64,000 nucleotides of DNA, taken from positions 1-64,000 of IMG/VR virus record IMGVR_UViG_3300037851_000259, one strand, 5' to 3'. Both the position numbers and the translations under genes were made by a program. Origin of the DNA: a virus. Below the pieces are notes generated by a model that worked only from the letters and a program-made list of their open reading frames with translations, made no database searches and was not told the origin of the DNA. Positions within the stretch are counted from its first letter, which is position 1. The number at the start of each line of letters is the position of its first letter. Shown in pieces: positions 4,176 through 41,255 of this stretch.

Positions 4176-4757
4176 ATGATTCTTAAGACCGACTATAGAG
4201 ACTTCTATGATATTTGGCTATCCCTAGATGGAAAGCCTCCAGTATGGTGGCGAAGGACAACAGATGGCCCAGATCGTATAGAGATGTTCGCTCTCCTCAA
4301 AGCCATGGGTCTTTCGACCCCTCTTATAAATCCAAAGACCGGCCCTTGCGTCGTTCACAGGAACATCAAGGCCCATTGTGGAGAGGGCAAGCAGCTAGAA
4401 AGCGGGCCTGCTCCGCAAGGAAACCTTGCTTTTAACGTCGAATATGTTGGCGACTTTCCTGGGGAAAGCTGGAGATATCTCTATCTAGCTGGGGAAGTGT
4501 TTTGGATTAAGTATTCGTCGACGGAGTCGTGGATGAGCAATGTTGGGGACGGAAATGTTGAAGTGTTGGGCAGGATACCGGAAGTTGAGATTCCTAATAT
4601 TCTGAGGAGTCCTGTTTGGGCTGTGGACTTTGTTAGGTGCTTGAGGAGGGGTCTGTTGGCTGTGGACCTGAATGTTGCGCCGGGTTGTTGGCCAGTTAGA
4701 CATTTGGTCAGTGGGGAGTCCATAGGAAGGCAGGTTGCTGGTCTTCTAGGAAGATAA
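4176..4757 (+). CDS. Hypothetical protein
   Basis: 193-aa ORF with GAGGAGAAG upstream of the ATG. The 3' half lies in a G+T-rich segment, so the C-terminal extent is uncertain. Confidence 0.45.
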   Translation: MILKTDYRDFYDIWLSLDGKPPVWWRRTTDGPDRIEMFALLKAMGLSTPLINPKTGPCVVHRNIKAHCGEGKQLESGPAPQGNLAFNVEYVGDFPGESWRYLYLAGEVFWIKYSSTESWMSNVGDGNVEVLGRIPEVEIPNILRSPVWAVDFVRCLRRGLLAVDLNVAPGCWPVRHLVSGESIGRQVAGLLGR

Positions 4758-5067
4758 GGCTCCAGGATGGAAGGGATGTTTGGATACGGACTGCCTCTAG
4801 GACCTCCATTACGAAGGGGTCGTTGGGTTCGTGAGAAGCTAGGCGCTTGATTTGGGTGATGTGGGCGAACTTTTGGGAGAAGGCTTTGTAGAAGTCCATT
4901 TGGGTTGGATATCTTTTGAGGTCGCGCAGGAAGTGCAGTTCGATAAAGCTCGCTTCGCAAGCAAAGATTGCTTCGCTAGAGGAGCGTGTTAGGAGGCAGA
5001 AGTCTGCGGGGTAGTGGCCACTGGACAAAATGACCGCTTCGATTTTGCTTAGAAGGTTTGATTTCAT
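4708..5067 (-). CDS. Hypothetical protein (119 aa)
   Basis: Only the 3' 119 codons of track ORF 4708..6024 look protein-like (MKSNLLSKIEAVILSSGHYPADF...). The ATG at 5067 overlaps the RNA ligase stop as ATGA (5064-5067). Confidence 0.5.
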   Translation of the reverse strand: MKSNLLSKIEAVILSSGHYPADFCLLTRSSSEAIFACEASFIELHFLRDLKRYPTQMDFYKAFSQKFAHITQIKRLASHEPNDPFVMEVLEAVRIQTSLPSWSLIFLEDQQPAFLWTPH

Positions 5068-6230
5068 TTCTGGCTCCACCGAATGTCGAAGCTTGGGCTT
5101 ATGACTTTGAAGCTTGTCATATTGGCTTGGCCACGGTCTGGGGGACGCACGTCCAGGGGGCGCAAGACTACACCTTCGCGCAGGACCTTGTCCCCGAACA
5201 AGGAGAAGCCGTCGGCGTATTTGAGGAGTTCGGGCATGGACTTGAAGGTCCAGGTGAAGGTTTCGAGATGGGGCACCACGTCCAGGCCCACACTTTGACA
5301 GAGAGTTTTCATTTCGGAGTAGGGCAGGTATTGGCCTGTTTTGATGTTGCGCATGTTGAAGATGAAGTAACAGCGTGAGGGGAAGGCGTATTTGTTGCTT
5401 TGGATGCCGGGGCCACAGAGTTCGCCTTGGATGTAGAAGTCGTAGTTGAGCTTTTTGTGGAGGGCTATGAGTTTGGACTTGATGTCGTTGCTTTTGGCAA
5501 AGGTCCAGTAGTTGTTGACTGTTCCTTCTTTGAGGTTGAGGTTGCGGGAACAGACGGTGAGTTTGTATTTGGGTCGGAAGAGACCTATTTGCTTTTGGAG
5601 GGCAAAGAGGCAGGACTGACCGTCGAGCTTTTCGGTGGCGAGCCAGGTTTGGCCCTGGTATTGGTCGTAGATGTAGGGCAGGTTTTGGGCTCGGGTTTCG
5701 TCTGATTTGGACGCCCATTTGGGCCAGGAGTAGGACTCTTTCTTTTGGAAGAAGAGCTTGTTGTAGAGCTTTGTTAAGAGCGGGAAGCGGTAGATGAAGC
5801 GACGGAAGGCGGAGAGGGGCTTGGGCTCTACTTTGGTGGCGCTGGCCTCTTCGAGGGATTCGGGGTCGTATTTGATGATGCCCAGGGCTTCTGTTACGTC
5901 TGCACCATCGGCAAGCTTGTGGGCCTCGGGGCAGAGGGAGATTGGGAGGACCAGGCCCTCGGAGTAGAGGTTGCACATTTTCATGTTGCGTATGCGGAAG
6001 CCATTCCATTTTTCGCTGTAGCAACGTGCGCGAAGGAACTCGAACTCTGGGCGCACGGGCAAAAGCGAGTCTACTTCGCAGTAGATTACTTTGTCGTCCA
6101 CTTTGGTGTCGGCTGAGACGATGACACGGAAGGAGACGTTTTTGAAGGAAGCATAGAGGATACGGTCTTTGTCTTTGATTGGCTCCAGGGAGGCAATGGT
6201 TTGAACAGTCGCCAGGTTGCGATTAGACAT
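5064..6230 (-). CDS. RNA ligase, DRB0094/Rnl5-like family
   Basis: - Nucleotidyltransferase motif I: ATEKLDGQS (KxDG).
- GELCGPGIQSNKY and EGVVLRP...SFKVISPSF resemble motifs IV/V.
- The N-terminal module VQTIASLEPIKDKDRI...VIYCEVDSLLP is typical of DRB0094-type ligases. Confidence 0.72.
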   Translation of the reverse strand: MSNRNLATVQTIASLEPIKDKDRILYASFKNVSFRVIVSADTKVDDKVIYCEVDSLLPVRPEFEFLRARCYSEKWNGFRIRNMKMCNLYSEGLVLPISLCPEAHKLADGADVTEALGIIKYDPESLEEASATKVEPKPLSAFRRFIYRFPLLTKLYNKLFFQKKESYSWPKWASKSDETRAQNLPYIYDQYQGQTWLATEKLDGQSCLFALQKQIGLFRPKYKLTVCSRNLNLKEGTVNNYWTFAKSNDIKSKLIALHKKLNYDFYIQGELCGPGIQSNKYAFPSRCYFIFNMRNIKTGQYLPYSEMKTLCQSVGLDVVPHLETFTWTFKSMPELLKYADGFSLFGDKVLREGVVLRPLDVRPPDRGQANMTSFKVISPSFDIRWSQK

Positions 6231-21118: not shown

Positions 21119-21227
21119 GGTTTTCTTTCCCTTTCCTAGCTGCTAAGAACAAAGTTGCGATAGCTACCGCTGATTATAGAAGTAGCTATCTCAAGTAGAG
21201 CTTAAATCGTTATGGGTGGATTGGATT

Positions 21228-28590: not shown

Positions 28591-31434
28591 TTAAGCCGTA
28601 ATCCTCACCTTCCGCCTCTTAGGGACTTCTTCCTTAGGAGGCTTCCTAACAAAGCCAAGCGACTCTATGGAATCTGCGTGGACTAATCTGTAGGCGTCTA
28701 TCATAAGAGCTTGCCCACAACCCTTGATAGTAACCAAAGGTGCTCTCAGTCCGTTGTCTTCAATCTTCCAATCTGAGTAATGAGACTTAAGTATGTCGGG
28801 CTGTTTAATCCTGTTACCCAATGCAGAAGCATAGGCTTTGACCTTGTCTTCGTTTTCTGATTCCACTGACAGTTCAGCGCACCAGAACTCAAGAGGATAT
28901 TTGTGCTTAAGAAAAGCGGTAGCGTAAGAAACCACCGCATAAGACACGGCGTGGCTAAAATTGAAGGAATACCGAGCACTTGCCTGAAGCACATGGAAGA
29001 AATCCAGTGCCTGGGACTCTTTCCATCCTCTTTCTACCAGCTTGTTCACAAGTATCCGACCGTGTTCCGCCAGCGTTTGAGCATCTTTCTTGGAAATACC
29101 ACGGCGTACAACCTCCGCTGTTTCATAGGTATACCCAGCCAAATCTCTGTACGAACGTAGCATCTGTTCTTGAAGCAGAGGAGCCCCTGCTGTGTTGCCG
29201 AATATAGGTTCAAGTTCTGGATGGATGTAGTGAGGCTTCTGTTTGCCCTGTTTCACAGCTACATAGTAGTCGAGCATGTTCTTGTATCCTTCAACAGGAG
29301 AAGGAGCGTCGATTACGGCCGGTCTATATGCTGCAACCAGATTAGCAATGTCTCCAATGGATTCGGGTTTCGTGTCTTCGCATAGCTTGGTGATGCCCTG
29401 AGTTTGTGTCTGAAACGTGCCTTCGGTATCTCCCTTCCAGTAAACAGTCTTGTATACGTCCAGGTCATGAGGCAATTCTCCCCATTCAAAACTCACCCCA
29501 TGTCTCTGTTCAATTAGTTCAAAGGCTTTTTGTATGGTGTGCATTTTTGTTACACCTAAGATATCCACCTTAAGACCGCCGACATATTCCACGTCTTTCG
29601 GGTTGTAACCAGTGCAGAGGGTTCCTGCCTTTCCGCCTACTCTAAAAACAGGGAGAAAGTGATGTACAGGAATAGAAGAAATTAGCATTCCACAAGGGTG
29701 TGCCGATTTTTGTCTAATAACTCCACACATACGAACTACCATGCTCCAGATTTCTGGATTGTCGTCTGCATATTTTTGGAGTTCTTTGTTCTTTTCGATA
29801 GCTCCTTCTACGTGCTCCCCATCTTCATCTGAATATCCGAACAGCCAGTCTGTTTCATTAACGCCTTGAGGAACCGTGTCCATAGTCTTTAGCAAGACTT
29901 CAGTCTGTACTCTGGCCTTACCAAAGAAGTGTCTTTCCGCATCTCTAATGGCAGAACGAGGCTTTAATAAGGTGTCGATTGATATAGGAATGCATCTGTC
30001 CTGAAACATGTCGTTAATGATGGGGGTGATCATGTCTCTGTCTGGGAAATCTAGGTCCATGTCTGGCGGGTTCATGGATTTAATTCTGCCAAGAGTCAAG
30101 AACCGTTCAAATTGAAGTCCGTATTTGATAGGGTCTGCCGTTGATACTCCTAGGCCATAGGCGCAGAAGCATCCAGACCCAGATCCTCTAAGGTTCATGA
30201 GTATCTTGTGTTTCCTGGCTTCAGTGGCTATGTCTGACACCAACAGCAAATAGCCCATTCCGTCCAACTTATCTGAAGAGCCAAGCACACTTAGTTCGTA
30301 GTCGATGCGTTCTTTCAGCTCTTTGTTTTCAAGGTCCACACGACCAAACTCTTTTATGCGCCTAATCACTTCTTCTTTGGCGTCACCACCCTTAAACCCA
30401 GGTACAAGAAAACCACGTTCTTTGGCTGTAAGGAACTCGTACTTGTCGAAATGGGTGACAAACTCATGGGTGTTGTCAATAAGCTCAAGGATGTCCTTTT
30501 CACCCAATCCCTGTGTGTGCTGGGCAAGCTCTGCATACTCTGCTGCCCCTTTAACGTGTTGGTAATAGGGCATGATCCAATCAGAACCGAACCGCTTATT
30601 GTCCTGGATGATTTTGTCTGACACTTCAGCATAGTGAGCGTCTTGGGCTGCTATGCGCTTAACTCCCCTTGGTTTAGTGACCTCCTCCCAACGCACTCTA
30701 TTTGACTCACGGATGACGTCAGGGTGGGTAAACCATGCCAAGGTATCATTAACTACCAAACGGGGCTCTAGCAGCGTTTCTGACTGCGCTTCGTACTCAT
30801 AGGTTAAATCGTCTACTATCCACTCATCATAGATGTTCTCAACGCCTATGGTGTCAATCATCAGCTGCAATCTCTCTTGAGCTTCTGCAACGTCTCCTCG
30901 TTTGATGATTGGAGCATTAAGCCATCCACCAATACAGGCAGTTCCAACGACTATTCCGTGCTTGGCTACTTCCAGGAAGTCTTCCCAATACATACAGCCC
31001 TTAACGTCACCGAAGGCTGTCTTCATTCTTGGTTCTGAGTAAATCAGTGGGGTGAGCTTGCAGTAGGCTTCAAATGCTTCTCTGGTCTTGAAGTATATGG
31101 TGATGTGGTAAGTGGCATCCGCCTTGTGTTTGTCATTAGGCCAGTACAGGTAGGCTTCTACACCGTGTATGACCTTTAGACCTGCTTTTAGCCCTATCCT
31201 GTGGGCTGCTGCTGCACTATTAAGTGTACCGTGCTCACTGAAGGTTACATGGGTCATGCCCAGAGCCTTCATACGCTTTACCATTCTGTCTACTGAAGAG
31301 GCTCCATCAAGAGAACCAGCATCAGAGTGCATATGGAAACAACAGGCTAAGGTTTTCCCTTTGTATTCATTGGGATAGTCTTCTTTTGGAATGTATAGGT
31401 CTTTTTCTTTGAGTAATGTGTTCAATGTTTTCAT
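28591..31434 (-). CDS. dnaE: DNA polymerase III alpha subunit (DnaE-type, PHP domain)
   Basis: PHP motifs CCFHMHSDAGSLDG and THVTFSEHGTL. Also LRGSGSGCFCAYGLGVSTADPIKYGLQFERFL, PDMDLDFPDRD and KSAHPCGMLIS. Confidence 0.9.
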   Translation of the reverse strand: MKTLNTLLKEKDLYIPKEDYPNEYKGKTLACCFHMHSDAGSLDGASSVDRMVKRMKALGMTHVTFSEHGTLNSAAAAHRIGLKAGLKVIHGVEAYLYWPNDKHKADATYHITIYFKTREAFEAYCKLTPLIYSEPRMKTAFGDVKGCMYWEDFLEVAKHGIVVGTACIGGWLNAPIIKRGDVAEAQERLQLMIDTIGVENIYDEWIVDDLTYEYEAQSETLLEPRLVVNDTLAWFTHPDVIRESNRVRWEEVTKPRGVKRIAAQDAHYAEVSDKIIQDNKRFGSDWIMPYYQHVKGAAEYAELAQHTQGLGEKDILELIDNTHEFVTHFDKYEFLTAKERGFLVPGFKGGDAKEEVIRRIKEFGRVDLENKELKERIDYELSVLGSSDKLDGMGYLLLVSDIATEARKHKILMNLRGSGSGCFCAYGLGVSTADPIKYGLQFERFLTLGRIKSMNPPDMDLDFPDRDMITPIINDMFQDRCIPISIDTLLKPRSAIRDAERHFFGKARVQTEVLLKTMDTVPQGVNETDWLFGYSDEDGEHVEGAIEKNKELQKYADDNPEIWSMVVRMCGVIRQKSAHPCGMLISSIPVHHFLPVFRVGGKAGTLCTGYNPKDVEYVGGLKVDILGVTKMHTIQKAFELIEQRHGVSFEWGELPHDLDVYKTVYWKGDTEGTFQTQTQGITKLCEDTKPESIGDIANLVAAYRPAVIDAPSPVEGYKNMLDYYVAVKQGKQKPHYIHPELEPIFGNTAGAPLLQEQMLRSYRDLAGYTYETAEVVRRGISKKDAQTLAEHGRILVNKLVERGWKESQALDFFHVLQASARYSFNFSHAVSYAVVSYATAFLKHKYPLEFWCAELSVESENEDKVKAYASALGNRIKQPDILKSHYSDWKIEDNGLRAPLVTIKGCGQALMIDAYRLVHADSIESLGFVRKPPKEEVPKRRKVRITA

Positions 31435-31488
31435 GAACTTAACCTCATTGTTATTAGGGGTTAAGCTAACGTACCATTGTATTAGTGC

Positions 31489-31713
31489 TTAGACAAATAC
31501 GAACTTCATGTGTGGTAGGTTGAGTGTGCAGTACATTACATCGTCTAATGGTTTGGAGTAATACAGTACAGGTCTTATCGAATGAGTGTTTCTGCTAAAG
31601 ACCAATGCATCAAGGGTCTCTTCACTGTCTGCTTCAGCTGCTTCTGTCAACTCTTCCAGATACACTCTTGAGATAGCTTTAGGGTCTTTGTATCCTCTTG
31701 GCTTCATCCACAT
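31489..31713 (-). CDS. Hypothetical protein
   Basis: 74-aa ORF upstream of dnaE on the same strand. Confidence 0.4.
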   Translation of the reverse strand: MWMKPRGYKDPKAISRVYLEELTEAAEADSEETLDALVFSRNTHSIRPVLYYSKPLDDVMYCTLNLPHMKFVFV

Positions 31714-31811
31714 GGTAGCTTCTCCTTCTTTAGGTCTATAGGGCTTTTACTCTATAAGGAAGTTACTGTACAGTGGGTCTGTACCACTATAAGAAACACG
31801 TGGGGGGAGAG

Positions 31812-32087
31812 ATGAACTATTGGGCAGTAACCAGATTAGACCACATTACAAGAATATGGAAAAGCAATGACCCATTCCCAAAAGACCTTTGGACATTCAA
31901 TGTTTATTCAAACAAGATGACCAAAGAATACAAACTGCCTTGTCTTGAAGGTAAGGAATGGAAAAGGAAGTCTCCTACGATGAGTGATTGCCTATTGTAT
32001 GAAGGAGACTTTCCTGGAGTGTGTAAGTATCTGAAAGACAATGGACTAATCCTATATCTTGAAACTCTCATAAACTCACTGTGTTAG
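31812..32087 (+). CDS. Hypothetical protein
   Basis: The ATG at 31812 is preceded by GGGGAGAG. The track GTG start at 31773 lacks an SD. Confidence 0.4.
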   Translation: MNYWAVTRLDHITRIWKSNDPFPKDLWTFNVYSNKMTKEYKLPCLEGKEWKRKSPTMSDCLLYEGDFPGVCKYLKDNGLILYLETLINSLC

Positions 32088-32098
32088 TTAAATACCTG

Positions 32099-32127
32099 TT
32101 GACAAAAGCCAAAAGACTTGTTACAAT
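32099..32127 (+). promoter_or_regulatory. Sigma-70 consensus-like promoter TTGACA-N17-TACAAT
   Basis: TTGACA at 32099-32104, a 17-nt spacer and TACAAT at 32122-32127. This lies about 28 nt upstream of the GTG at 32155, which has GGAGAG as SD. Confidence 0.65.
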
Positions 32128-32154
32128 GGGTTTGTTTAGCTATGGAGAGAAATA

Positions 32155-34803
32155 GTGAACGCCTTATACAAATTCCAAGTCAAGAAACCCTCTACCACCA
32201 GAAAAGGCTACTTCCCCTACAGTAAGCCTGGGGTGGAGCTTGAGTGGATGAAGGGGTTGGATAAGGCTGAGAAGACTAAGCAATGGCTTTTCTTCTACAA
32301 TGTTGCTGTGTTGTGGGGGAAGGGTAAGAGCAGCTGGTACCAGAGAGTAGATGAAACAAGTCCTATTAAGGACACGGTGTTTGTTCTTGACTTTGATAAA
32401 TCCCATTGTAAAGAAGGACTTGTAACTGAGGCTTTTGAGAGGTTCAGGAAGAGCCTTAGTGGGAAAGCTTTGCTGGTTAAGAGCTTTAGTGGGTTTCATG
32501 TGGTGTATGTCCTTGAAGGGGACCACCGCAAGGAATATTGGGATATACAGATATCTGTCGTGCTGAAGTATTTCCCTGAGATGTTAGATGAGCTTGATGT
32601 GGGGGTGTGTGGGAACCATAGGAATGGGTTCTTTCATAGTCAGCATGTTGAGAAGTGGGCTAGGGAAGGTGTTGTTGACGTTGGGGCTGTAGGGACTTGC
32701 TGGTTCTCCTTTAAGGCAAAGCTGTCTGAGTTGGACGTTTCGTTTGGGTGTAAGGATGCTTTTGGGCTATGGAAGGCTTGGAGGAAATATGGAGAAGACA
32801 AGCGAGGCGGACGAAAGATTTCAGATGCAGCCGCCAGAAGATTTCGTGGAATATTGGCTGTTTCCGACTACAGGAACAACAAAGCTCTATACGCAAGTGG
32901 CTGCGAAGGAGCGGAAGAATCAGAACGTAAAGCCTACTGGAACTGTATCGAGAGCCATGTTCACGATGAAGCTGTCAAAAATGAAGGAATACCAAGCGTT
33001 TCTGGCAAGCTGGCCCTGCGAACTGTCAGACCTGGAGCAGTGGCGAGTGAAGGATATGTTGGAAGAGGTGGAGAGGATATTAACAGAAGCCTCTTACAGA
33101 GAAATAGCCAGAAGGTCCATGGACACATCCGCCGCAATAGTGGCTGGAATGAAGGAAATCAGGAAGCGGGACTATATGGACATAGCGGCTCAGACCGTTT
33201 TCTGGAATTTGTACAAGCTGTCAAGCTTCTGTGTAACCAGAGAGCAGTCGACCTTGAGGTCCTGGGCTACTTCCTTTCAGAGGATTGCTTACGAAGCCAC
33301 CGCTACTGGAGCATCAAATCAGAAGAATCGGATTTCCAGGTTTTCTTTGGAATCGTGCGACAGGTTCTGGAAGGAAATCATGGGCTCGGAAGAAATCTTA
33401 GAGCTGAATGGTCAAGCGTTAGCGAATGGCTTAGATGTGCGGAAGTGTGTTTGGGAGCTGACCCAGCTCCTGACAACGAACATGGATATGTCGCAAAACT
33501 CGCCAATAAGGGCTTCGGACTATACCTTGCTACACACGGCTTATGGGTCTCAAGGGTAAGAAAAGTCAGTCTCTCTACTGACAAATACACCTTTGATGTA
33601 TCGAAGTTTGTTCAGGATGTCATGTCCAACACAAACGTAGATGATTTGATTTGTTCTTCTAGGGCAAAGGTTTTCCTTAAGAGCAAATTCAAGAACGGTG
33701 TTGCGTGGCTTGAAGAAGGAGCCAGGAAACTCTTGGCCTACTTCGCTAAGTTCTGGGGCCTAATTCTGAATGGTAAGCCCATTGGTCTTGGCGTAGGTAA
33801 TGTCTCTGAGTTCTTTCAGTGCAAGAACATTTCGGAATGTTCTGCAATAAGGAAGATATTTCTGTCACTCCTGTCTTCTAAGAAGACAGCATATGTTCCA
33901 AAAGTTAAGCAAACTCAATACTTTATGGAAGTTGAAGCCCTCAAGAAATACTTCGTTTCTGTTGATGGGGAAGAGAGAAAGGGGAACATTCACGTTCCCG
34001 GCACCGTTGAAGAACTAGCTTCTAAACTCGGAAAGGGCAATACGTTCGAGACATTTCGTCGGTATGCCAAGCCTATGTATCGTGTGCATGGATACGAGAG
34101 GAGCCTTGAGATGTGGCATCAGGCTATTGACTTATCCACTGCTAACGATAAACATTACAGGCACGGAGACATTGATAGGTTCGTAGAGAAAATTGCGAGG
34201 CAAGAATATGAAGCCAATAAAGAAGACCCAATGTTCCATTACCGAATTGGAGTTGCTAAGGACGAAGGACAACCAGATCAGTGTGGATGTGGTGCCCAGC
34301 ATAGCGAACTGCGTTTGCTTCCCTCAGTGCGACTTTTCGATAGTAGAGATGCCGACGGAACCAGAGGAATGCCTGCCTCTGTTTCAGACTCTGTACGACA
34401 GTCAGAAGCAGAACCACATTTGTGTGGTGACAGTGAGACAGCCGAGGAAGACTCGGCTGTCTACATTGAAGAACCTGACTATAGTGGAGGAAGCTGGATT
34501 CAAATTCCACGACACAGTGACTATCGTGTCCCAAGACGCTTACAAGTGCGTTCCGTCAAATCTGACCCCTCTGGGGGAAGTGGTGTTTCTGTTCACGAAA
34601 GGGAACGACCTGAACAAAGAAGCCTCTTCATGGTTCCACGAAGAAAAAGGCGACTGTACAAACGTGTGGGACGTTATGCCTCAAGAAAGAGAAGTCACGT
34701 TCAAGGACATGACCGTGAGTCGTCACTTCTGTTTGGAGGTTGGGGCCATTCTGGGGTCACTGGCCAGCCCGCTCCTGTGCCGGAGGTTTCTGATTGTGGG
34801 TAA
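32155..34803 (+). CDS. AEP-type primase-polymerase-like protein (N-terminal about 200 aa); coding status of the rest of the 882-codon ORF is uncertain
   Basis: DxD motif VFVLDFDKSH and sGxGxH motif VKSFSGFHVVYVL. In 32789-33559 and 34208-34803 the translation becomes Gly/Arg/Ser-rich while another frame looks more protein-like (see findings). Confidence 0.5.
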   Translation: MNALYKFQVKKPSTTRKGYFPYSKPGVELEWMKGLDKAEKTKQWLFFYNVAVLWGKGKSSWYQRVDETSPIKDTVFVLDFDKSHCKEGLVTEAFERFRKSLSGKALLVKSFSGFHVVYVLEGDHRKEYWDIQISVVLKYFPEMLDELDVGVCGNHRNGFFHSQHVEKWAREGVVDVGAVGTCWFSFKAKLSELDVSFGCKDAFGLWKAWRKYGEDKRGGRKISDAAARRFRGILAVSDYRNNKALYASGCEGAEESERKAYWNCIESHVHDEAVKNEGIPSVSGKLALRTVRPGAVASEGYVGRGGEDINRSLLQRNSQKVHGHIRRNSGWNEGNQEAGLYGHSGSDRFLEFVQAVKLLCNQRAVDLEVLGYFLSEDCLRSHRYWSIKSEESDFQVFFGIVRQVLEGNHGLGRNLRAEWSSVSEWLRCAEVCLGADPAPDNEHGYVAKLANKGFGLYLATHGLWVSRVRKVSLSTDKYTFDVSKFVQDVMSNTNVDDLICSSRAKVFLKSKFKNGVAWLEEGARKLLAYFAKFWGLILNGKPIGLGVGNVSEFFQCKNISECSAIRKIFLSLLSSKKTAYVPKVKQTQYFMEVEALKKYFVSVDGEERKGNIHVPGTVEELASKLGKGNTFETFRRYAKPMYRVHGYERSLEMWHQAIDLSTANDKHYRHGDIDRFVEKIARQEYEANKEDPMFHYRIGVAKDEGQPDQCGCGAQHSELRLLPSVRLFDSRDADGTRGMPASVSDSVRQSEAEPHLCGDSETAEEDSAVYIEEPDYSGGSWIQIPRHSDYRVPRRLQVRSVKSDPSGGSGVSVHERERPEQRSLFMVPRRKRRLYKRVGRYASRKRSHVQGHDRESSLLFGGWGHSGVTGQPAPVPEVSDCG
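32789..33559 (+). CDS. Nested +1-frame ORF (256 aa) inside the 882-codon ORF, hypothetical
   Basis: ATG at 32789 preceded by GGAGG (32780-32784). The translation is helical and ordinary (SDLEQWRVKDMLEEVERILTEASYREIARRSMD), and codons show a G-at-position-1 bias. Confidence 0.35.
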   Translation: MEKTSEADERFQMQPPEDFVEYWLFPTTGTTKLYTQVAAKERKNQNVKPTGTVSRAMFTMKLSKMKEYQAFLASWPCELSDLEQWRVKDMLEEVERILTEASYREIARRSMDTSAAIVAGMKEIRKRDYMDIAAQTVFWNLYKLSSFCVTREQSTLRSWATSFQRIAYEATATGASNQKNRISRFSLESCDRFWKEIMGSEEILELNGQALANGLDVRKCVWELTQLLTTNMDMSQNSPIRASDYTLLHTAYGSQG

Positions 34804-34924
34804 CTTGGAGAACGGCCATGCTGAGTTTTCTAAGAAGTTTGGCATGTCTGTGTGTGCATTTACAGAAGACGAACTCTCTGCTAAGAGAGTAATCAGATAT
34901 TACAACTCCCTTTGTGAAAACTAA
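34208..34924 (+). CDS. DNA methyltransferase-like protein with degenerate catalytic and AdoMet motifs
   Basis: It has the layout of N6/N4 MTases (PF01555-like):
- CDFSIVEMPTE sits where VDLIITDPPY is expected.
- EEAGFKFHDTVTIVSQD (GF..d.iiW.K) and TNVWDVMPQERE are present.
- RRFLIVGNLEN sits where gR.fiGiE is expected.
- There is no clear DPF.GSGTT motif.
The RBS is GAGG plus 7 nt. Confidence 0.5.
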   Translation: MKPIKKTQCSITELELLRTKDNQISVDVVPSIANCVCFPQCDFSIVEMPTEPEECLPLFQTLYDSQKQNHICVVTVRQPRKTRLSTLKNLTIVEEAGFKFHDTVTIVSQDAYKCVPSNLTPLGEVVFLFTKGNDLNKEASSWFHEEKGDCTNVWDVMPQEREVTFKDMTVSRHFCLEVGAILGSLASPLLCRRFLIVGNLENGHAEFSKKFGMSVCAFTEDELSAKRVIRYYNSLCEN

Positions 34925-34944
34925 TAACTCTTTAGGAGATTGAC

Positions 34945-36549
34945 GTGGCTAAGGAAATTCAATCTGGAGCTAGTGCTCGAAACAAAGCTATCAAGGCGCT
35001 CAACGACATTGCAGGCATCGTGTCTTCTACTGTTGGTCCTGGTGGCAGACCTATTCTTCTTTCAAGGCAAACATCGGCCACCACTGCGACTACGTTCCAT
35101 ACAAAAGATGGAATCACCGTTCTTAGGGAACTTTCGTACACTGACCCAATCAATGATGCTGTGCACAAACTCGCTATTCAGGCTACGGCAGACACTGTGA
35201 TGGCTTCTGGAGACGGAACTACTTCGACGCTTATCATGGCTGCTGCTTTTGCCAACAAGCTTGTTCAGACTTCTAAGTCAAACCCGCAGTCAGCAGTGCG
35301 AGCATTCAGAGCTGAAGTGAACAAAGCAGTCAACGCCATCAAAGAAGAAGTAGCGATGGGTCCAGAGGCAGAGGCTAGAGTGGCACTCACTTCTACGAAT
35401 GGCGATTCGGAGCTTACCAGTCACGTTATCGGTGCTGTGAACGCCACATCTGCTTTCGGAACTGTGCTGGTTGAAAAGAACCCAATGTCCAAGGTTCCTT
35501 ATTGCGTTGATAAGGACTATGGGTATCAGGCAGGCAACGGATACAGCTACAACGTGACCTTTGCAATCTCTGTTTCAGACAAGGCAGTCACCAATGCTGA
35601 CTTTCATCTAAACGAACCTTATGTCATTCCCTACAATGGAAATATTTCTCAGCTTGAGCAAATCACTCCAATGCTTGAGAAGCTGTACCTCAAATCGGAC
35701 ACTTTTGAGGTCTTGATTGTTTGCTACGAGGTAACAGAAGATGTCATTAACAAGCTCATTGTCGCTAATCGTAAGAACCCCGGTGTTCGTATATTCGTTT
35801 GTAAGACGACGCCTACTGCTGAGCTTAATGGACCCTGGAATCAGCTCAATGATGTCGCCGCATTTTCAGGAGCAACTATTGTGGATGGCGGTTATGTGCC
35901 TCGATGGACCGTTAAGGATGCTGGTGTAGTTAAGGAAGCCAGGGTCACTCCATACAAGACGTTCTTGCTCGGTAAGTCTGAGAACAACTGGATTGTCAAG
36001 AGAGCAGAGCAGAACGCTACCACGGCATCTCTAGCCACCACCCCTCTGGATAGAGATATTGTCAACTCGCGCAATGCATCTCTCACTGGGGGATTGGTGA
36101 AGCTGATCATCGGCGGTGCCCTTCCCGGTGACCTTCAGGAAATTGCTGACCGCGCAGATGATGCGATCAAAGCATCTCAGGCTTGCCGACGGTCTGGTGC
36201 CCTTCCGGGATGCGGTCTTTCCTTCATTCGAGCAGGTGAGCTTGGCGGCGTGTCAGAGAGCGTAATGGAAGCTCTCAGGTCAGTCCACCATGCCATTGTA
36301 GAGAATTATGGCTATGAACCTATCGAGCACCCAAGCAAGCACGAGACTCTCGCCATTAAGGATGATGCGGTTATTGTTGGTAATTTCTTGGAACTTGGAG
36401 TCGCCGACAGTTACGAGACGGTGAGAAGCGTTATGCTCAATGGATTCGCACTTGGTTCTTTGGTAGCCAATATTGGAGGCTATTGTCTTAGTGCCGATAT
36501 TGAAGAGATACACAAGCAGACTATGCTGAAGGACCTGCTGCTATCATAA
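34945..36549 (+). CDS. groEL: GroEL-like chaperonin (Cpn60 family)
   Basis: AKEIQSGASARNKAIKALNDIAGIVSSTVGPGGRPILL...TKDGITVLRE...ATADTVMASGDGTTSTLIMAAAF aligns with the canonical GroEL N-terminus (AKDVKFG..TLGPKGRNVVL..TKDGVSVAREIE..AGDGTTTATVLA). GTG start with a TAGGAG SD. Confidence 0.9.
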   Translation: MAKEIQSGASARNKAIKALNDIAGIVSSTVGPGGRPILLSRQTSATTATTFHTKDGITVLRELSYTDPINDAVHKLAIQATADTVMASGDGTTSTLIMAAAFANKLVQTSKSNPQSAVRAFRAEVNKAVNAIKEEVAMGPEAEARVALTSTNGDSELTSHVIGAVNATSAFGTVLVEKNPMSKVPYCVDKDYGYQAGNGYSYNVTFAISVSDKAVTNADFHLNEPYVIPYNGNISQLEQITPMLEKLYLKSDTFEVLIVCYEVTEDVINKLIVANRKNPGVRIFVCKTTPTAELNGPWNQLNDVAAFSGATIVDGGYVPRWTVKDAGVVKEARVTPYKTFLLGKSENNWIVKRAEQNATTASLATTPLDRDIVNSRNASLTGGLVKLIIGGALPGDLQEIADRADDAIKASQACRRSGALPGCGLSFIRAGELGGVSESVMEALRSVHHAIVENYGYEPIEHPSKHETLAIKDDAVIVGNFLELGVADSYETVRSVMLNGFALGSLVANIGGYCLSADIEEIHKQTMLKDLLLS

Positions 36550-36582
36550 GATAAGTGAAATGAGTTTATCTTGGAGGGTTTC

Positions 36583-36996
36583 GTGAGCACGACATACACA
36601 CTACAGCCACTCAATTACATCAATGAGAACGTGTTTACGTTTGAGTCTAATTGGGAAATCCTCCATGGTGCGCCTTGCAAATTGCATTTCCAGCTTGTTG
36701 TGGTCGATGCCCTTGGGTCACGCCGATATCTTCCTCCAGCAGGAACTCTGGTGAACGTATCCTTTTTGAGGTCTAGACCGCCTACCGTAGGAAGCACCTC
36801 TACTTCTGTATCCAAGAATGCTATACAGCTTTTGCCAAGCTCTGACAGGTCGGTCTATCAGATTGACTTGACAGCTGCTGATACAGTGCAGATTATTAGT
36901 GGTGGAGCTAAATTGACACTTAACCTTGGTGGCGTTGAAGTAGGATTCAACTTGCCTCACATAGTTAAGAAGATTGTTTCATTGCCTGGTTTTTAA
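36583..36996 (+). CDS. Hypothetical beta-rich protein
   Basis: GTG at 36583 preceded by GGAGGG. 137 aa. Confidence 0.5.
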   Translation: MSTTYTLQPLNYINENVFTFESNWEILHGAPCKLHFQLVVVDALGSRRYLPPAGTLVNVSFLRSRPPTVGSTSTSVSKNAIQLLPSSDRSVYQIDLTAADTVQIISGGAKLTLNLGGVEVGFNLPHIVKKIVSLPGF

Positions 36997-37076
36997 CTTT
37001 GTGACTTTTGCTGCTGGTGTCTATAATCGACGTCAGCTCACTGATTCAACTGTCTATGTAGGAAGGAAGGACTTCT

Positions 37077-37655
37077 ATGACTGCTCCAATGTATACCAAG
37101 ATTTTCCAGTCGATTGAGGAGAATCTTTACAATCTCGGTTATTCTGGCAAAGCCAAGCGTAAGTGGTTCGGCGACATCGCTGCTGGAGCTTCTGTGAAGA
37201 TTGGCAACACGGTTCCTGTTGCTGCCTGTCTCATGAACTTCACCGACGCTAGTTACCCTACTGCCAACGACCTTGCTTTCATCGCTGTGATGCGTCAGGA
37301 CGAAATCGCTGGTCTTCAGTGGCCCAAGGCTATGACCAGCCAGCTTCACGCTTATGACCAGTTTTCGCAAGCTGGCGCGTTCCTGGTTGACATCTTCCTG
37401 GAAGCTCCTGTGATTGCTGCTGGCGCTGACCCTGCTGCTGCGACTATCGCCCTGCTCAAGTTCCAGAACGATGTGATCCACATCTTCCGTGGACAATGGT
37501 CGGCTCCCGTGCGCATCAACTACTCGACAAATGCGACACCTGCCGCAATTGCCACAGTTGATGGTAAGAACCAGGCTGCTGAATCGGCAGTGACTTACAC
37601 CGCTGGTGGCGTGCTTCTGCCTTACGGCCGTATCGCAACTAACACACTCGCCTAA
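37077..37655 (+). CDS. Hypothetical, probably abundant virion protein
   Basis: 192 aa. AGGAAGGAAGGA SD, optimal-type codons (GCT, CGT, CTG, NNC), TATAAT upstream and a strong terminator downstream. Confidence 0.55.
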   Translation: MTAPMYTKIFQSIEENLYNLGYSGKAKRKWFGDIAAGASVKIGNTVPVAACLMNFTDASYPTANDLAFIAVMRQDEIAGLQWPKAMTSQLHAYDQFSQAGAFLVDIFLEAPVIAAGADPAAATIALLKFQNDVIHIFRGQWSAPVRINYSTNATPAAIATVDGKNQAAESAVTYTAGGVLLPYGRIATNTLA

Positions 37656-37689
37656 TAAGCGTTTGTATCGGTTGACCTTGCTAAAAGTT

Positions 37690-37723
37690 CTCCCCAAGAG
37701 TTTCTCTTGGGGAGTTTTGTTTA
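37690..37723 (+). terminator. Rho-independent terminator
   Basis: 11-bp stem CTCCCCAAGAG/CTCTTGGGGAG, loop TTTC, then TTTTGTTT. Confidence 0.8.
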
Positions 37724-37831
37724 GAAGCTTGCTGAAGATTTGATGACGTGGTAAACTTCGCTTTGCGTTTCACCCGATATCTATCGCATAATGAGGTTTA
37801 GCTCTTTCTGTGTATATAAGGAGAACGACGA

Positions 37832-38308
37832 ATGTCAGAAATGCTTTCTACAGACAAGACTAAGCTTAACGACTTCCACAAGTCGCAGCCCGCCCTGTCT
37901 AAACCTGGTTTTGTTAATAGTTATCCCGCTGGTGTGGAACTCGGAACCTTGATTGACAAGGCTCTGAGCAATGTTTGCTCGAAGGCTACGTGGGACTTCG
38001 CTTCTCATGGTGGAGCCATCACTCCAGATATCTATCTGGGTGTGACTATCCCTGCTGGCGCGATTGTTACTGGTGTTGTGACTCGTGAAGTGACCAATGT
38101 CACCTCTCTTGGCGCTCCTGAGTTTGTTGTCACCGTTGGAGCTACTGCTGTGGCTACTGTGGCTGACGCTACGGCTCTTGCCGGTGTGCAGGTCCAGACC
38201 GCGACGGCTGCTTATTTTGCTGCTGAAAGCAAGGTCTATCTGAACATCAACACTGCTGCTGCTACCGCTGGTAAGGTCGAGTTCTATATTTCCTATATTT
38301 GTCCGTAA
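37832..38308 (+). CDS. Hypothetical, probably virion protein
   Basis: 158 aa, Ala/Thr/Val-rich, TAAGGAG SD, optimal-type codons. Confidence 0.55.
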   Translation: MSEMLSTDKTKLNDFHKSQPALSKPGFVNSYPAGVELGTLIDKALSNVCSKATWDFASHGGAITPDIYLGVTIPAGAIVTGVVTREVTNVTSLGAPEFVVTVGATAVATVADATALAGVQVQTATAAYFAAESKVYLNINTAAATAGKVEFYISYICP

Positions 38309-38323
38309 TTGAGGAGGTGCTGT

Positions 38324-39394
38324 ATGTCTAACAATCAGAACGCAGAATCTCTTCTGAAATCGCTCAATTCAGATATTGACGAACTCACCGCTCTTACGAA
38401 GTCGTTCTTCGAGAAGGTGAAGAAGGCTGAAGGCGCAGAAGAGGAAGAGGGCAAAGACCCTATCGTTGAAGATTCTGTTGGTGGGGATGAACCTCCTATG
38501 CCTCAAGAAGGTGAAGGGGAAATGCCAGCAGAAGGTGAGATGCCAATGGAAGGCGAGATGCCTACAGACGAGGGTGACCTTGGGTCCTATGTGCAGGGAT
38601 TGGATGATTCTGAACTCAAGAACATCCTTACCGCTCTTATGGACGAATACGAAGCTCGTCTTGGTGGTGGTGAGGAAGGTATGGAAAAGGCTGACGGTCT
38701 TGGGCTTGGTGCCCCTTCTGTCCCGCCTGCCCCTATCGCTCCAGATCCGATGCTCGGCAAAGCCGGTGAACTGCCTCCTCCTGAAGGTCAAGATGGTTTG
38801 CCTCCTATGCCTGAAGAAGGAATGGAAGATCCTAATGCTGCTGAAGGCGCTGCTCCTAACGAAGAGTCAGTGCGTCAAGCTGTTGCAACGCTCTCTCCTG
38901 AAGAGAAGCAGTTGCTGCTTCAGATTCTTCAGGAAGGCGAACAACCGCAGCAAGGTCTGGCCGCAGAACTGCCCGCAGGCGCTCCTCCTGCTCAGAAGAG
39001 TCTGAAACTTCCTACCAAGGAATTTGGTGGCGACAAGGCTGCTGATGGTTCTAAAGAGTCTGTTGCTGCTTTTGGCGCTCTTAAGAAGTCGCTCGATGAG
39101 TTCAACTCTCGACTGGCCAAGCTTGAGAAGTCAGTTAAGGCTCCGACAGAGACTATGCCTACTCGTCAGTATGCTTCGCAGAATCCTGAAGTGGTCGTGC
39201 TTGAGAAATCAGTCGGCAACGAAGGACGTATGGACGGAATGAGCCTTGCTAACTGGCTTATCGGTCAGCAGCGTCAAGGTAACAAGCTGGTCAAGTCCAT
39301 TCTTGTGACGAAGGCCAATCTTGCTAAATCGGAAGATTCACTGAACGAAGTCTATTCTGAGCTTAAGAATCTTGGAATTACGCCTCCTAAGTGA
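38324..39394 (+). CDS. Acidic repeat-containing protein, possible scaffolding protein
   Basis: ATG at 38324 after GAGGAGG. Very acidic and Pro/Glu/Gly-rich, with an (E-G-E-M-P-x)x3 repeat at 38507-38575. Helical basic C-terminus. Followed by a terminator. Confidence 0.45.
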   Translation: MSNNQNAESLLKSLNSDIDELTALTKSFFEKVKKAEGAEEEEGKDPIVEDSVGGDEPPMPQEGEGEMPAEGEMPMEGEMPTDEGDLGSYVQGLDDSELKNILTALMDEYEARLGGGEEGMEKADGLGLGAPSVPPAPIAPDPMLGKAGELPPPEGQDGLPPMPEEGMEDPNAAEGAAPNEESVRQAVATLSPEEKQLLLQILQEGEQPQQGLAAELPAGAPPAQKSLKLPTKEFGGDKAADGSKESVAAFGALKKSLDEFNSRLAKLEKSVKAPTETMPTRQYASQNPEVVVLEKSVGNEGRMDGMSLANWLIGQQRQGNKLVKSILVTKANLAKSEDSLNEVYSELKNLGITPPK

Positions 39395-39416
39395 AAACTG
39401 TTCGTGTGCAGTTTTC

Positions 39417-39446
39417 GGGAAGGAACCTAGGTTCCTTCCCTTTTTC
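39417..39446 (+). terminator. Rho-independent terminator
   Basis: 11-bp stem GGGAAGGAACC/GGTTCCTTCCC, 2-nt centre, then TTTTT. Confidence 0.8.
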
Positions 39447-39540
39447 GTTATTAGAAAAAGTTACCCACCACCCCTTGTTTGTCGTTGCCCTACGGTCTAC
39501 ACTCATAAAACCCAGTTCACTAAATAGCAAAGGCCAAGGT

Positions 39541-39828
39541 ATGTCAGATGTATTACATAGATTTGTATGCTTGTCGTGTTCTAGAGAACCTTTCTATGCG
39601 TTTGAAGATGCTTGTCGATGTGTTTGTGGTTCTGAAGCAAAGAGGGATGATATTTGTGTGACGGCAGCTACCACCAATATGTACGAAGGAGTGGTTCACG
39701 ACACACTTAACACCATTGATGACGATGTTGACCAAGAAACTGAACGAGAGCTTGTTAGCCGAGACCTTGTTAAGGCAGAAAAGCTTAGGAGAGGGATAGA
39801 TGTCGAGCCAACCCATACCGCGTCCTAA
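39541..39828 (+). CDS. Small zinc-ribbon protein
   Basis: The ATG at 39541 gives MSDVLHRFVCLSCS...CRCVCGSE. The longer track ORF from 39391 would run through the terminator. Confidence 0.45.
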   Translation: MSDVLHRFVCLSCSREPFYAFEDACRCVCGSEAKRDDICVTAATTNMYEGVVHDTLNTIDDDVDQETERELVSRDLVKAEKLRRGIDVEPTHTAS

Positions 39829-41158
39829 ATTTGACTTCAGGTTCATGAAAGCCATTTTGTTGCGTCTTCTCATGCAGCCGCACTTGTTGGTTAGATATAA
39901 AGATTATTTGCATCCAGATATGTTCGACATTGGCGACGGACATGGTGCTCTCAGAAAGCTTGCTCAGATTATTATTGGGTGGGTTCGAGAGGAAAAAGAC
40001 TTACCAACTGTAGATGGAGTTGACGCACGCCTACAGCTTCTTCCAGATGGAGAAGAGCGTAGCAACGTAATTGCTCTTTTCTTTGAGATAAGGACTGACT
40101 CAGAGCTTGCCAGGTACTCTGAATCAGACCAGGTGTTCTCAGTATTCCTTCAGTGGCTTAAGGCCATGGCCTTCATGAGTGAATATCATGGCGTAAAGGA
40201 AAAGTTCAACTCGGGCTCATTCGATGATGCCTATGTCAACCTTGAAAAGACCCTGACCAAGATCAAAGGAATTACTCTTGATTCTGTTCAAAGTGCTGAT
40301 TGGGACACCTCTCTTAAGTTTCTTGAAGAAGAGTCCAACAGACCTGACCGTAAGTTCCTTTTTGGCATAGAGGACTTTGACTCTCTGGCGGGCTTTGAAC
40401 CACAGCAGCTTGGACTTTTTGTAGCCATGACGGGTGGGGGTAAGTCGATGTTATCTGTACACTTTATTCGTCAAGCTATACAGCAGGCTAAACACATCTA
40501 CGTTGCTTGTGTAGAAGATAGGAAAGTTACCATTCTTCGTCGTGTGTACGCGGCAATCACTGGTATCCCAATGTCTGACATCAAGAAGCTGTGCGACATG
40601 CCTCCAGAAAGTCGAAAGAAGATGAAGGAAGCCGCTGCGTTACTTCAGAAGTACGTTACCATCGAATTTATGTACGGGCAGCCCCTCGACTTCATTCTTT
40701 CGAGAGTTAAAGAAGAAAACACGGCGAGAGAACTAGCAGGCAAGCCTAGGTTTGATGCTATGGTTTTGGACTATTTGCAACACATCGCTCACTTATCTCC
40801 TGGTGACGCGATGCATGAGAAGCTTACTAACTCAATGGCTAGGTACAAGGACTTTGCCTTGTCTAACAACATGACATGCATTACTCATCAGCAAGTCAAT
40901 CGCGGTGGCGCAATGGCTCAGTCCAAAGAAAGCATCATTACGATGGCAGATATGTCTGGGTCTTACCAAGCTGCTTTCGTTGCTGACGTAATCATTTCCC
41001 TGAACAGAACGCAGGACATGAAGGACAAGGACGAAGCCGTGTTGTGTGTTCTTAAGGGCCGTGAGGGTGCTCTTGACCAGAAATTTCAGGTCAAGACAGA
41101 ATTTGCAAGAGCAAGATTCAACTTTGATGACTATGTTCGTTTGGATAAGATGTCGTGA
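39800..41158 (+). CDS. dnaB: DnaB-like replicative helicase
   Basis: Walker A FVAMTGGGKSM, Walker B AMVLDYLQHI and ITHQQVNRG. The N-terminal helical domain resembles the DnaB N-domain. Confidence 0.75.
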   Translation: MSSQPIPRPKFDFRFMKAILLRLLMQPHLLVRYKDYLHPDMFDIGDGHGALRKLAQIIIGWVREEKDLPTVDGVDARLQLLPDGEERSNVIALFFEIRTDSELARYSESDQVFSVFLQWLKAMAFMSEYHGVKEKFNSGSFDDAYVNLEKTLTKIKGITLDSVQSADWDTSLKFLEEESNRPDRKFLFGIEDFDSLAGFEPQQLGLFVAMTGGGKSMLSVHFIRQAIQQAKHIYVACVEDRKVTILRRVYAAITGIPMSDIKKLCDMPPESRKKMKEAAALLQKYVTIEFMYGQPLDFILSRVKEENTARELAGKPRFDAMVLDYLQHIAHLSPGDAMHEKLTNSMARYKDFALSNNMTCITHQQVNRGGAMAQSKESIITMADMSGSYQAAFVADVIISLNRTQDMKDKDEAVLCVLKGREGALDQKFQVKTEFARARFNFDDYVRLDKMS

Positions 41159-41255
41159 CCATTGGCATTGACTGGTGTGCCAATTGTCCGGCGAAGCTGC
41201 ATGACGATAATTGGTGGTTATGCCCCTCTGCTACCACCGTATATGGAGATTCCTT

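Follow-up and report, generated by a model that had tools for sequence, protein, structure and literature searches.

In an uncultured large phage, one long gene encoding a replication-module protein (gene A) remains open straight through two other complete genes that sit in a different reading frame, passing through the whole of the first (B1) and most of the second (B2), and comparison with related phages shows that both readings of the same DNA are kept by selection, making this, to our knowledge, one of the longest dual-coding stretches in a phage. The locus was identified within a window of 64,000 nucleotides (positions 1 to 64,000 of IMG/VR record IMGVR_UViG_3300037851_000259), and its parts are listed in Table 1. 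Long out-of-frame overlaps are textbook features of tiny ssDNA and RNA phages and are usually explained by genome compression, whereas here the RNA ligase protein of the window itself lies on a contig of at least 187 kb, such that compression is not an obvious driver. Of practical importance, automatic annotation of these contigs called only the long open reading frame and missed both B1 and B2, leaving a 53-aa remnant in L001, the closest relative of the window (79% nucleotide identity), and real genes, including one encoding a protein with a predicted methyltransferase fold, are therefore invisible in the databases.

Table 1. Coordinates of the features of the A/B1/B2 locus within the 64,000-nucleotide window.
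Feature	Coordinates	Strand	Description
Gene A	32155..34803	+	882-aa replication-module protein read in one frame through B1 and most of B2
A1	32155..32788	+	N-terminal domain of A, AEP/primase-polymerase-like (suggestive only); only frame A coding
B1 Shine-Dalgarno motif	32780..32784	+	GGAGG, 4 nt upstream of the B1 ATG
Gene B1	32789..33559	+	256 aa, +1 frame, fully nested in A; autonomous protein family of unknown function
A linker over first half of B1	32959..33186	+	Frame A residues 269-344; Gly/Arg/Ser/Asp-rich, predicted disordered; kept open, no detectable amino-acid constraint
Dual-constrained stretch	33187..33556	+	Frame A residues about 345-467 (predicted helical) over second half of B1; includes an invariant 66 nt at 33480-33545
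A2	33559..34206	+	Conserved C-terminal domain of A; only frame A coding
B2 Shine-Dalgarno-like motif	34197..34200	+	GAGG, 7 nt upstream of the B2 ATG
A tail	34207..34803	+	198-aa C-terminal extension of A over B2, predicted disordered; stop TAA at 34801
Gene B2	34208..34924	+	238 aa, +1 frame; predicted N4/N6 DNA-methyltransferase-like fold, no recognisable (D/S)PPY motif

Stop avoidance in the overlapping frames

Analysis of the reading frames demonstrated that frame A (position mod 3 = 1) contains no stop from 32140 to 34800, while frame B (mod 3 = 2) is open at 32693-33556 and 34187-34921, yielding stop-to-stop overlaps of 864 and 614 nt; the third frame, in contrast, is full of stops. The initial annotation had reported, from a hand count, that none of the 44 T-ending codons of B1 is followed by a codon that would create a stop in frame A, and this count is exactly right: 74 B1 codons start with AA, AG or GA, and 0 junction stops are present where 12.8 are expected. 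Similarly, B2 has 0 such stops where 9.7 are expected. When synonymous codons or codon order were shuffled, 6.4-15.9 frame-A stops were expected, and at most 2 of 5000 shuffles reached zero in each of four tests (two segments in two genomes). Moreover, in 12 ordinary genes of the window (8352 codons) the -1 frame has 8% stops and a longest open run of 80 codons, as compared with 256 and 197 codons here. Consistent with targeted avoidance, T is used at the third position of 0/38 stop-prone codons in B1 and 0/35 in B2, against 35% and 31% at other sites (Fisher p = 1e-6 and 2e-5).

B1 is nested in A in eight divergent genomes (the window, L001, and the loci designated L003, L005, L007, L011, L012 and L013), always with 0 frame-A stops (7.5-12.2 expected), third-position T of 16-22% and third-position G of 28-40%, and T is never used at B third positions where it would create a frame-A stop (0%, against 33-51% elsewhere). 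Four free-standing B1 homologues (L004, L008, L009 and L014), however, have 14-33 stops in the corresponding frame and normal composition, and free B2 homologues have 10-24. Taken together, third-position T is 0% at stop-prone sites and 24-51% at other sites in all 10 overlapped genes, a pattern absent from free homologues and from ordinary genes.

Selection, conservation and predicted structure

Substitutions relative to L001 switch phase along the locus in the order A-B-A-B, confirming the proposal of the initial annotation that frame A is the genuine protein between the overlaps and frame B within them. Specifically, dN/dS is 0.09 for frame A in A1, where substitutions fall at A position 3, and 0.16 and 0.10 for frame B in B1 and B2, respectively; in A2, substitutions again fall at A position 3, amino-acid identity is 0.79 and dS is saturated. 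Within the two overlaps frame A resembles an off-frame (dN/dS of 0.9 and 1.6), yet it has no stops in either genome. Amino-acid-level constraint on frame A was detected only over the second half of B1. There, frame B's dS falls to 0.26-0.28 (33141-33556), against more than 1 elsewhere (1.07 at 32961-33140), and A-frame similarity exceeds that expected as a by-product of frame B (z = 3.1, 1.4, 4.2, 1.8 and 6.0), whereas over the first half it equals this null (z from -0.1 to 1.5). The constraint is nonetheless moderate, and the pairs tested are not independent.

An exhaustive HMMER search revealed that B1 and B2 match free-standing proteins end to end (219-255 aa for B1; many of 215-235 aa for B2), while A1 and A2 co-occur in single proteins of 570-756 aa. 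A full-length homologue of A of 885 aa exists at 71% identity, A aligns end to end and in a single frame with P0010, a 727-aa homologue (E = 1e-56), including the conserved block LRSHRYWSIKSEESDF... encoded over the second half of B1, and the A-family profile matches in one frame in 9 loci. The A/B1 overlap is ancient and is conserved down to about 21-29% A identity. In contrast, the A tail is found only in the window and L001, with 0 stops in both genomes against 6.3-6.9 expected, and is absent from all other A homologues, which end at the start of B2 with 0-59 nt of overlap, indicating a derived, lineage-specific extension. Start sites are also conserved: the Shine-Dalgarno motif and start of B1 are conserved in L001, SD-like motifs precede the B1 start in L003, L005 and L007, and the motif and start of B2 are conserved in the window and L001.

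In AlphaFold2 (AF2) models, A1 and A2 are predicted with pLDDT of 80-92 and 75-95, respectively, while A is predicted to be disordered at residues 269-344 (pLDDT about 30) and 691-882 (below 35) and helical over the second half of B1. The primase-polymerase-like label given to A in the initial annotation is only suggestive: D79, D81, G113, H115 and H161 are invariant across 20 A-family members, but no Pfam, PHROG or PDB sequence hits were obtained for A1, and LigD polymerase domains, the top Foldseek hits, are not significant (E = 0.47, probability 0.51). The methyltransferase-like label given to B2, on the other hand, is confirmed at the level of predicted fold, as the model (pLDDT 94, pTM 0.89) matches N4C/N6A methyltransferases in PDB (E = 4e-8, probability 1.00, TM 0.52-0.59 to N4CMT, TTHA0409, M1.HpyAVI and CcrM). 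B2 of the window has no Pfam hit, only 1 of 29 family members weakly matches PF01555 (E = 0.0013), and the sequence contains no PP dipeptide, the position corresponding to the catalytic (D/N/S)PP(Y/F/W) motif reading ...DFSIVEMPTEPE...; B2 may be an inactive or divergent methyltransferase-fold protein. B1 has no Pfam, PHROG or PDB matches. An intein or intron-borne homing endonuclease is not indicated, as B1 is out of frame with A, no Pfam or PHROG domains are found in 10 family members, and no Rfam intron was detected.

Dual coding and alternative explanations

Of the three possibilities offered by the initial annotation (dual coding, frameshift isoforms, or separate genes under an unexplained constraint), these data support genuine same-strand dual coding, or overprinting, a reading to which a probability of roughly 0.82 can be assigned; the constraint is explained by translation of A through both genes. 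In this view A is translated as a single polypeptide whose middle part is encoded by the -1 frame of B1 and, in this sublineage, whose C-terminal 198 residues are encoded by the -1 frame of B2, while B1 and B2 are translated separately from their own internal Shine-Dalgarno/ATG sites on the same mRNA. Selection keeps frame A free of stops by forbidding T at B third positions preceding AA, AG or GA codons; where A needs only continuity it encodes a disordered, unconstrained linker or tail, and over the second half of B1 both proteins are constrained. That both frames are actually translated is inferred from selection signatures only, in the absence of transcript, ribosome-profiling or peptide evidence, and it is likewise an inference that the overlapping parts of A are the younger (de novo) reading and that the arrangement couples expression of A with that of B1 and B2.

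Programmed frameshifting or transcriptional slippage, generating fusion isoforms such as A1-B1 or A1-linker-A2-B2, could account for the alternation of the selected frame along one transcription unit, and the first 14 or so codons of B1 are poorly conserved in frame B while frame A stays conserved to about 32830, so the point at which selection switches is not exactly at the ATG. Such a model is not supported, however, and appears very unlikely. No conserved canonical slippery heptamer and no homopolymer run of 6 or more is present inside B1 or B2, the only conserved heptamer (32761) lies upstream of the B1 ATG and is not a canonical efficient site, and neither RNA structure (z = +1.34 over the dual-constrained stretch) nor an Rfam element was found. 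In addition, no hit spans the A1|B1, B1|A2 or A2|B2 junctions of the chimera, B1 and B2 have their own conserved starts and free-standing homologues of the same length, in some genomes far from or without A, and frameshifting gives no reason for frame A to stay stop-free for 256 and 198 codons. Chance, composition or an assembly artefact can be all but dismissed: although other long dual-open stretches exist in the window and the region has a positive GC skew, the same frames and overlaps occur in independent assemblies from different samples, all indels against L001 are multiples of 3 within the gene, and conservation across eight genomes, together with the shuffling tests, site-specific avoidance and free homologues described above, argues against such an origin.

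It is also conceivable, though unlikely, that only the A/B1 overlap is functional and that the A tail is a non-functional or nearly neutral read-through extension persisting in two related genomes, for example helped by a local composition shift. The tail is predicted to be fully disordered and shows no amino-acid constraint (A-frame dN/dS 1.6; an ordinary ratio of B position 1 to position 2 substitutions), leaving what it is selected for unknown, and the RNA ligase gene of the window also shows significant depletion of -1 stops (1 against 8.3 expected) without a conserved open reading frame, suggesting that compositional effects can partly mimic the signal. In the ligase, however, third-position T is depleted everywhere and not only at stop-prone sites, and in the same genome pair its -1 frame has 5 stops in L015 against 1 in the window. 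Over B2, by comparison, frame B's dS is 1.18, so synonymous sites have turned over, yet T is used at 0/35 and 0/38 stop-prone sites in the two genomes, against 31% and 24% elsewhere, and 11 of 30 shared stop-prone sites differ between the genomes without ever using T. The A stop lies at the homologous position in both genomes, and composition returns to normal in the last 40 codons of B2, directly after it.

A more far-reaching and tentative possibility is that a large replication protein has engulfed two pre-existing neighbouring genes, using the alternative frame of B1 as an inter-domain linker, part of which has become a constrained helical module, and, in one sublineage, that of B2 as a growing tail that is actively kept open. 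The locus would then represent a natural time series of de novo protein sequence being born inside folded genes in a large dsDNA phage, with translation of A through the B1 and B2 start sites acting as a built-in regulator of their expression.

Relationship to known overlapping genes

The occurrence of the same two gene families in free-standing, adjacent, nested and overlapped states in related genomes provides natural controls with which the cost and signature of dual coding can be directly measured, and offers a tractable model for how new protein sequence arises from the alternative frame of folded genes. Nested genes are themselves well known. In phiX174 and other Microviridae, genes B and K within gene A, and gene E within gene D (reviewed in PMC8227390), provide a close parallel in which a complete gene with its own start lies entirely inside a replication-protein gene, on the same strand and in a different frame, with both products made from one mRNA. 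The phiX174 genome, however, is 5.4 kb of ssDNA and its nested genes are 56-120 codons, whereas here the genome is large dsDNA, the nested gene is 256 codons, and a second neighbour is overlapped for 198 codons; furthermore, both B1 and B2 have free-standing homologues in related phages, so the overlap was assembled from (or dissolved into) pre-existing genes and is not a short reading frame born inside an old gene. The lambda-type spanin genes Rz/Rz1 likewise appear to comprise a +1-frame gene fully embedded in another gene of a dsDNA phage, with embedded, overlapped and separated architectures among relatives, but Rz1 would be a lipoprotein of about 60 aa in the lysis cassette, while the present genes lie in the replication module, their overlaps are four times longer, and the overlapping part of the host gene is partly a disordered linker.

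Viral overprinting with a disordered de novo partner (Rancurel et al. and Willis & Masel, as summarised in PMC8227390), and the nested p22/p19 pair of tombusviruses (PMC11044054), also resemble this locus, in that one reading (B) is well folded and strongly constrained while the other (A over the first half of B1 and over B2) is compositionally biased and predicted to be disordered, which relaxes the conflict, and in that the A tail is lineage-restricted. The younger-looking reading here, though, is not a new small accessory protein but an internal linker and C-terminal tail of a large, older, multi-domain protein, and the part lying over the second half of B1 is predicted to be helical and is conserved. 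Finally, the A tail looks like loss or relocation of the ancestral A stop, which sits at the start of B2 in L003, L007, L011, L012 and L013, and in this respect is similar to the 3' extension of prokaryotic genes into downstream neighbours by stop-codon loss (PMC3887535); typical extensions are 1-60 nt (4 and 59 nt in L013 and L003), while the extension observed here is about 600 nt and needs roughly 35 stop-prone sites in B2 to be kept free of T.

Reading frames and substitution patterns across the A locus

Examination of the plus strand revealed that frame A (position mod 3 = 1) is without a stop across the whole of the A open reading frame, that frame B, the +1 frame, is open at two places within and beyond it, and that the third frame is densely stopped (see table). 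The initial annotation, in which 44 T-ending codons were counted by hand in B1 and none was found to precede a codon starting AA, AG or GA, is exact: B1 contains 44 T-ending codons and 74 codons beginning with AA/AG/GA, yet no such junction occurs, against 12.8 expected, while B2 has 0 against 9.7 expected. Frame A is the -1 frame of B, and in 12 ordinary genes of the window (8352 codons) that frame carries stops at 8% of codons and has a longest open run of 80 codons, as compared with runs of 256 and 197 codons here. Synonymous-codon and codon-order shuffles expect 6.4-15.9 stops, and at most 2 of 5000 reach zero, in both segments and in both genomes tested. A codon-usage log-odds scan, in contrast, could not separate the frames inside the overlaps, because both are stop-free.

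Coordinates of the features (window positions unless a related locus is named)
Feature	Position	Strand	Remark
Frame A without a stop	32140-34800	+	
Gene A, open reading frame	32155..34803	+	882 aa
Frame B, first open stretch (B1)	32693-33556	+	
Frame B, second open stretch (B2)	34187-34921	+	
B1 Shine-Dalgarno motif	32780	+	GGAGG
B1 start codon	32789	+	ATG
B2 Shine-Dalgarno motif	34197	+	GAGG
B2 start codon	34208	+	ATG
A2 segment	33559-34206	+	
Substitutions concentrated at A position 3	32155-~32870 and ~33505-34220	+	
Substitutions concentrated at A position 1 (B position 3)	~32875-33500 and 34225-34924	+	
Reduced synonymous rate of B	33141-33556	+	
Invariant stretch	33480-33545	+	
Conserved synteny	28591-40392		shared with L001 and L003
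Interval lacking the DUF7487 gene of L001	between 37656 and 37729		
DUF7487 gene in L001	L001 5934-7381		
Called remnant of B2 in L001	L001 3059-3220		53 aa
Free-standing B2 in L007	L007 6288-6974		
Nested B1 in L012	L012 3010-3690		
RNA ligase gene	5064..6230	-	PF09414+PF21189
Open -1 frame of the RNA ligase gene	4708..6024	-	438 aa
Antisense open frames	18266-21142 vs 19472-21100	- vs +	
Antisense open frames	41211-46013 vs 44592-45548 and 42447-43151	+ vs - and -	
Antisense open frames	61753-62637 vs 61765-62694	+ vs -	
Sub-threshold Rfam hit to AgrB	34433-34503	-	antisense to B2

A search of 5.8 billion proteins returned a single non-self homologue of the 882-aa product, an 885-aa protein (P0002) that is 71% identical over its full length and whose 10-kb contig (L001, 79% nt identity) has frame B open at the two homologous places. 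In the pairwise alignment, all indels inside the gene are multiples of three and the phase of substitutions switches four times. dN/dS is 0.09 for A in A1 and 0.16 and 0.10 for B in the two overlaps, where frame A behaves like an off-frame (0.9 and 1.6) and yet has no stop in either genome. The synonymous rate of B is more than 1 in most of the overlaps but falls to 0.26-0.28 at 33141-33556, where the amino-acid identity of A is 0.85-0.87 and one stretch is invariant. Additionally, the Shine-Dalgarno motif and ATG of both B1 and B2 are conserved, and the A stop is at the homologous position. Automatic gene calls on L001 and on the window's own Logan contig (L002) list only the long A frame and miss B1 and B2; the 53-aa "gene" called in L001 (P0055) is just the C-terminal remnant of B2 after the A stop.

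Protein families and related loci

Pfam and PHROG scans of all three open reading frames, and PDB sequence-profile searches for A, B1 and B2, gave nothing, while Pfam scans of the family members gave only one weak PF01555 hit for B2 and noise for A and B1. Similarly, blastn of the locus and tblastn of B1 against GenBank phages gave no match, peptide-pattern searches of IMG/VR with the single proteins found nothing, and the A-family alignment was too divergent for pattern retrieval. The DnaE and chaperonin proteins reach only about 26-28% identity to known phages, indicating an uncultured lineage to which no cultured phage is closely related. In an exhaustive HMMER search with a frame-corrected chimera (A1+B1+A2+B2), B1 matches free-standing proteins of about 243-255 aa end to end, B2 matches many free-standing proteins of about 215-235 aa end to end, A1 and A2 match together in single proteins of 570-756 aa that end right after A2, and no hit crosses a junction. 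A aligns in one frame, end to end, with one homologue (P0010; E = 1e-56), including a block encoded inside B1 (LRSHRYWSIKSEESDFQVFFGIVRQVLEG against LRGNGYWDTISEESDIKLLFSVLREALAG), whereas the 198-aa tail has no counterpart.

The A family has invariant D79, D81, G113, H115 and H161, an arrangement that appears to resemble the AEP DxD/sGxH motifs, although the best PDB matches of the AF2 model, LigD polymerase domains, are not significant (E = 0.47). The AF2 model of B2 has a pLDDT of 94 and matches N4-cytosine and N6-adenine DNA methyltransferases (E = 4e-8, probability 1.00), but B2 lacks a PP-containing catalytic motif and its Pfam signal is marginal. B1 has no detectable family or fold assignment.

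Related loci, retrieved through protein look-ups and pattern scans and then scanned in six frames with HMMs of A, B1 and B2, provide natural controls. B1 is nested in the +1 frame of A in eight genomes, namely the window and the loci L001, L003, L005, L007, L011, L013 and L012. In the last of these it scores only 36.7 bits against the B1 HMM, where others score 255-375, but is still open, with 0 frame-A stops over it, suggesting that B1 may be diverging or decaying there while the A reading is retained. B1 is free-standing in four further loci, L004, L008, L009/L010 and L014. In L009/L010 (178-kb contig) it sits between DnaE and the chaperonin gene with no A or B2 there, the 705-aa and 254-aa genes upstream of DnaE in L009 having proved unrelated to A and B2; in L014 it is divergently transcribed next to a 573-aa A whose middle region is shorter and unrelated. 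That B1 keeps company with the replication module even when free suggests a functional link to replication. B2 follows A everywhere, with an overlap of 0-59 nt except in the window and L001, where it is about 600 nt. In the window, L001 and L003 the conserved order is DnaE (minus strand), small genes, A(B1), B2, a Cpn60/GroEL-like chaperonin, about five small genes and a DnaB-like helicase, with an extra DUF7487 gene in L001 that is absent from the window.

Nested B1 copies always have 0 frame-A stops (7.5-12.2 expected; 0 of 2000 shuffles), with T3 of 16-22% and G3 of 28-40%, while free B1 copies have 14-33 stops, T3 of 29-40% and G3 of 18-19%. Likewise, overlapped B2 copies have 0 stops and free B2 copies have 10-24. 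The sharpest test considers B third positions where T would be synonymous: in all eight nested B1 and both overlapped B2, T is used 0% of the time when the next codon starts with AA/AG/GA, against 24-51% at other such sites (Fisher p from 1e-8 to 2e-4), and a third of these sites nevertheless differ between the window and L001. Free homologues and ordinary genes show no such contrast, although the free-standing B2 of L007 shows partial depletion of -1-frame stops (10 against 21.6 expected, 0 of 2000 shuffles), with T3 of 21% at stop-prone sites against 57% elsewhere (p = 2e-5), which could reflect a partial or former overlap and thus a possible intermediate state of the A tail. In the window, the composition of B2 returns to normal in the 40 codons after the A stop.

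Constraint on frame A and alternative explanations

To ask whether frame A is constrained beyond being open, synonymous codons of B1 were resampled, with A-frame stops disallowed, in five deep pairs, giving the A-frame similarity expected as a mere by-product of B1 conservation. The observed similarity exceeds this null in the second half of the overlap (z = 3.1, 1.4, 4.2, 1.8, 6.0) but not in the first half (z from -0.1 to 1.5). AF2 agrees: A residues 269-344 (first half of B1) and 691-882 (the tail over B2) have pLDDT of about 30 with no predicted secondary structure, whereas residues 345-460 are predicted helical and A1 and A2 are confident. This matches the published pattern that the younger partner of an overprinted pair tends to be disordered (PMC8227390).

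Frameshifting or slippage is not supported, as no conserved slippery heptamers or homopolymers were found inside B1 or B2, B1 and B2 have autonomous starts and free-standing homologues, and such a model gives no reason for A to stay open. An RNA element explaining the invariant 66 nt was likewise rejected, since this stretch folds worse than shuffles (z = +1.34) and there is no Rfam match above threshold; the only hit, to AgrB (29.6 bits against a gathering score of 40, E = 0.033), lies elsewhere and is most likely chance. Artefact and chance are excluded by eight independent assemblies and by the site-specific nature of the avoidance.

A neutral tail is disfavored by turnover at synonymous sites without any T at stop-prone sites, by the conserved stop position, and by an internal control, although the tail is seen in only two genomes and its function is unknown. 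Specifically, the RNA ligase gene, with 56% C and 9% T at codon position 3, also has a -1 frame open for about 1.15 kb (Pro/Arg/Gln/Leu-rich, running past the ligase stop), with 1 stop against 8.3 expected, but in the same relative genome it carries five stops, the C3 bias persisting in this close relative (L015), and in L016 (60% identity) the composition is normal and there are 24 stops; the open frame is probably a by-product of composition. Long antisense open frames (0.7-1.6 kb) also lie opposite other long frames of the window, and the gene at 18266-21142 has fewer -1 stops than expected (42 against 59.9, z = -3.3).

Proposed expression and comparison with known systems

Taken together, these data suggest that one mRNA would give three products: A, composed of A1, a linker encoded through B1, A2 and a tail encoded through B2; B1, from its own RBS; and B2, from its own RBS. 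Selection on both frames is shown, and it is from this that translation of both frames is inferred. By parsimony the A tail is derived, since five other genomes lack it. For A and B1 the direction is unresolved, though the occurrence of free B1 in lineages without A, the unrelated middle region of A in L014 and the predicted disorder of the A reading favor the overlapping part of A as the younger reading. As ribosomes translating A must pass over the B1 and B2 start sites, the arrangement could, speculatively, couple or throttle their expression.

The nearest analogues appear to be phiX174 A/B/K and D/E and lambda Rz/Rz1, together with viral overprinting in general (PMC8227390, PMC11044054, PMC3887535), such that overprinting itself is already known. 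The present case differs in that the overlaps are longer (771 nt nested plus about 600 nt), in that they sit in a large dsDNA phage (at least 187 kb), in that both inner genes appear to be pre-existing, folded, autonomous families with free-standing relatives, and in that the overprinted reading forms an internal linker and tail of a multi-domain replication protein.
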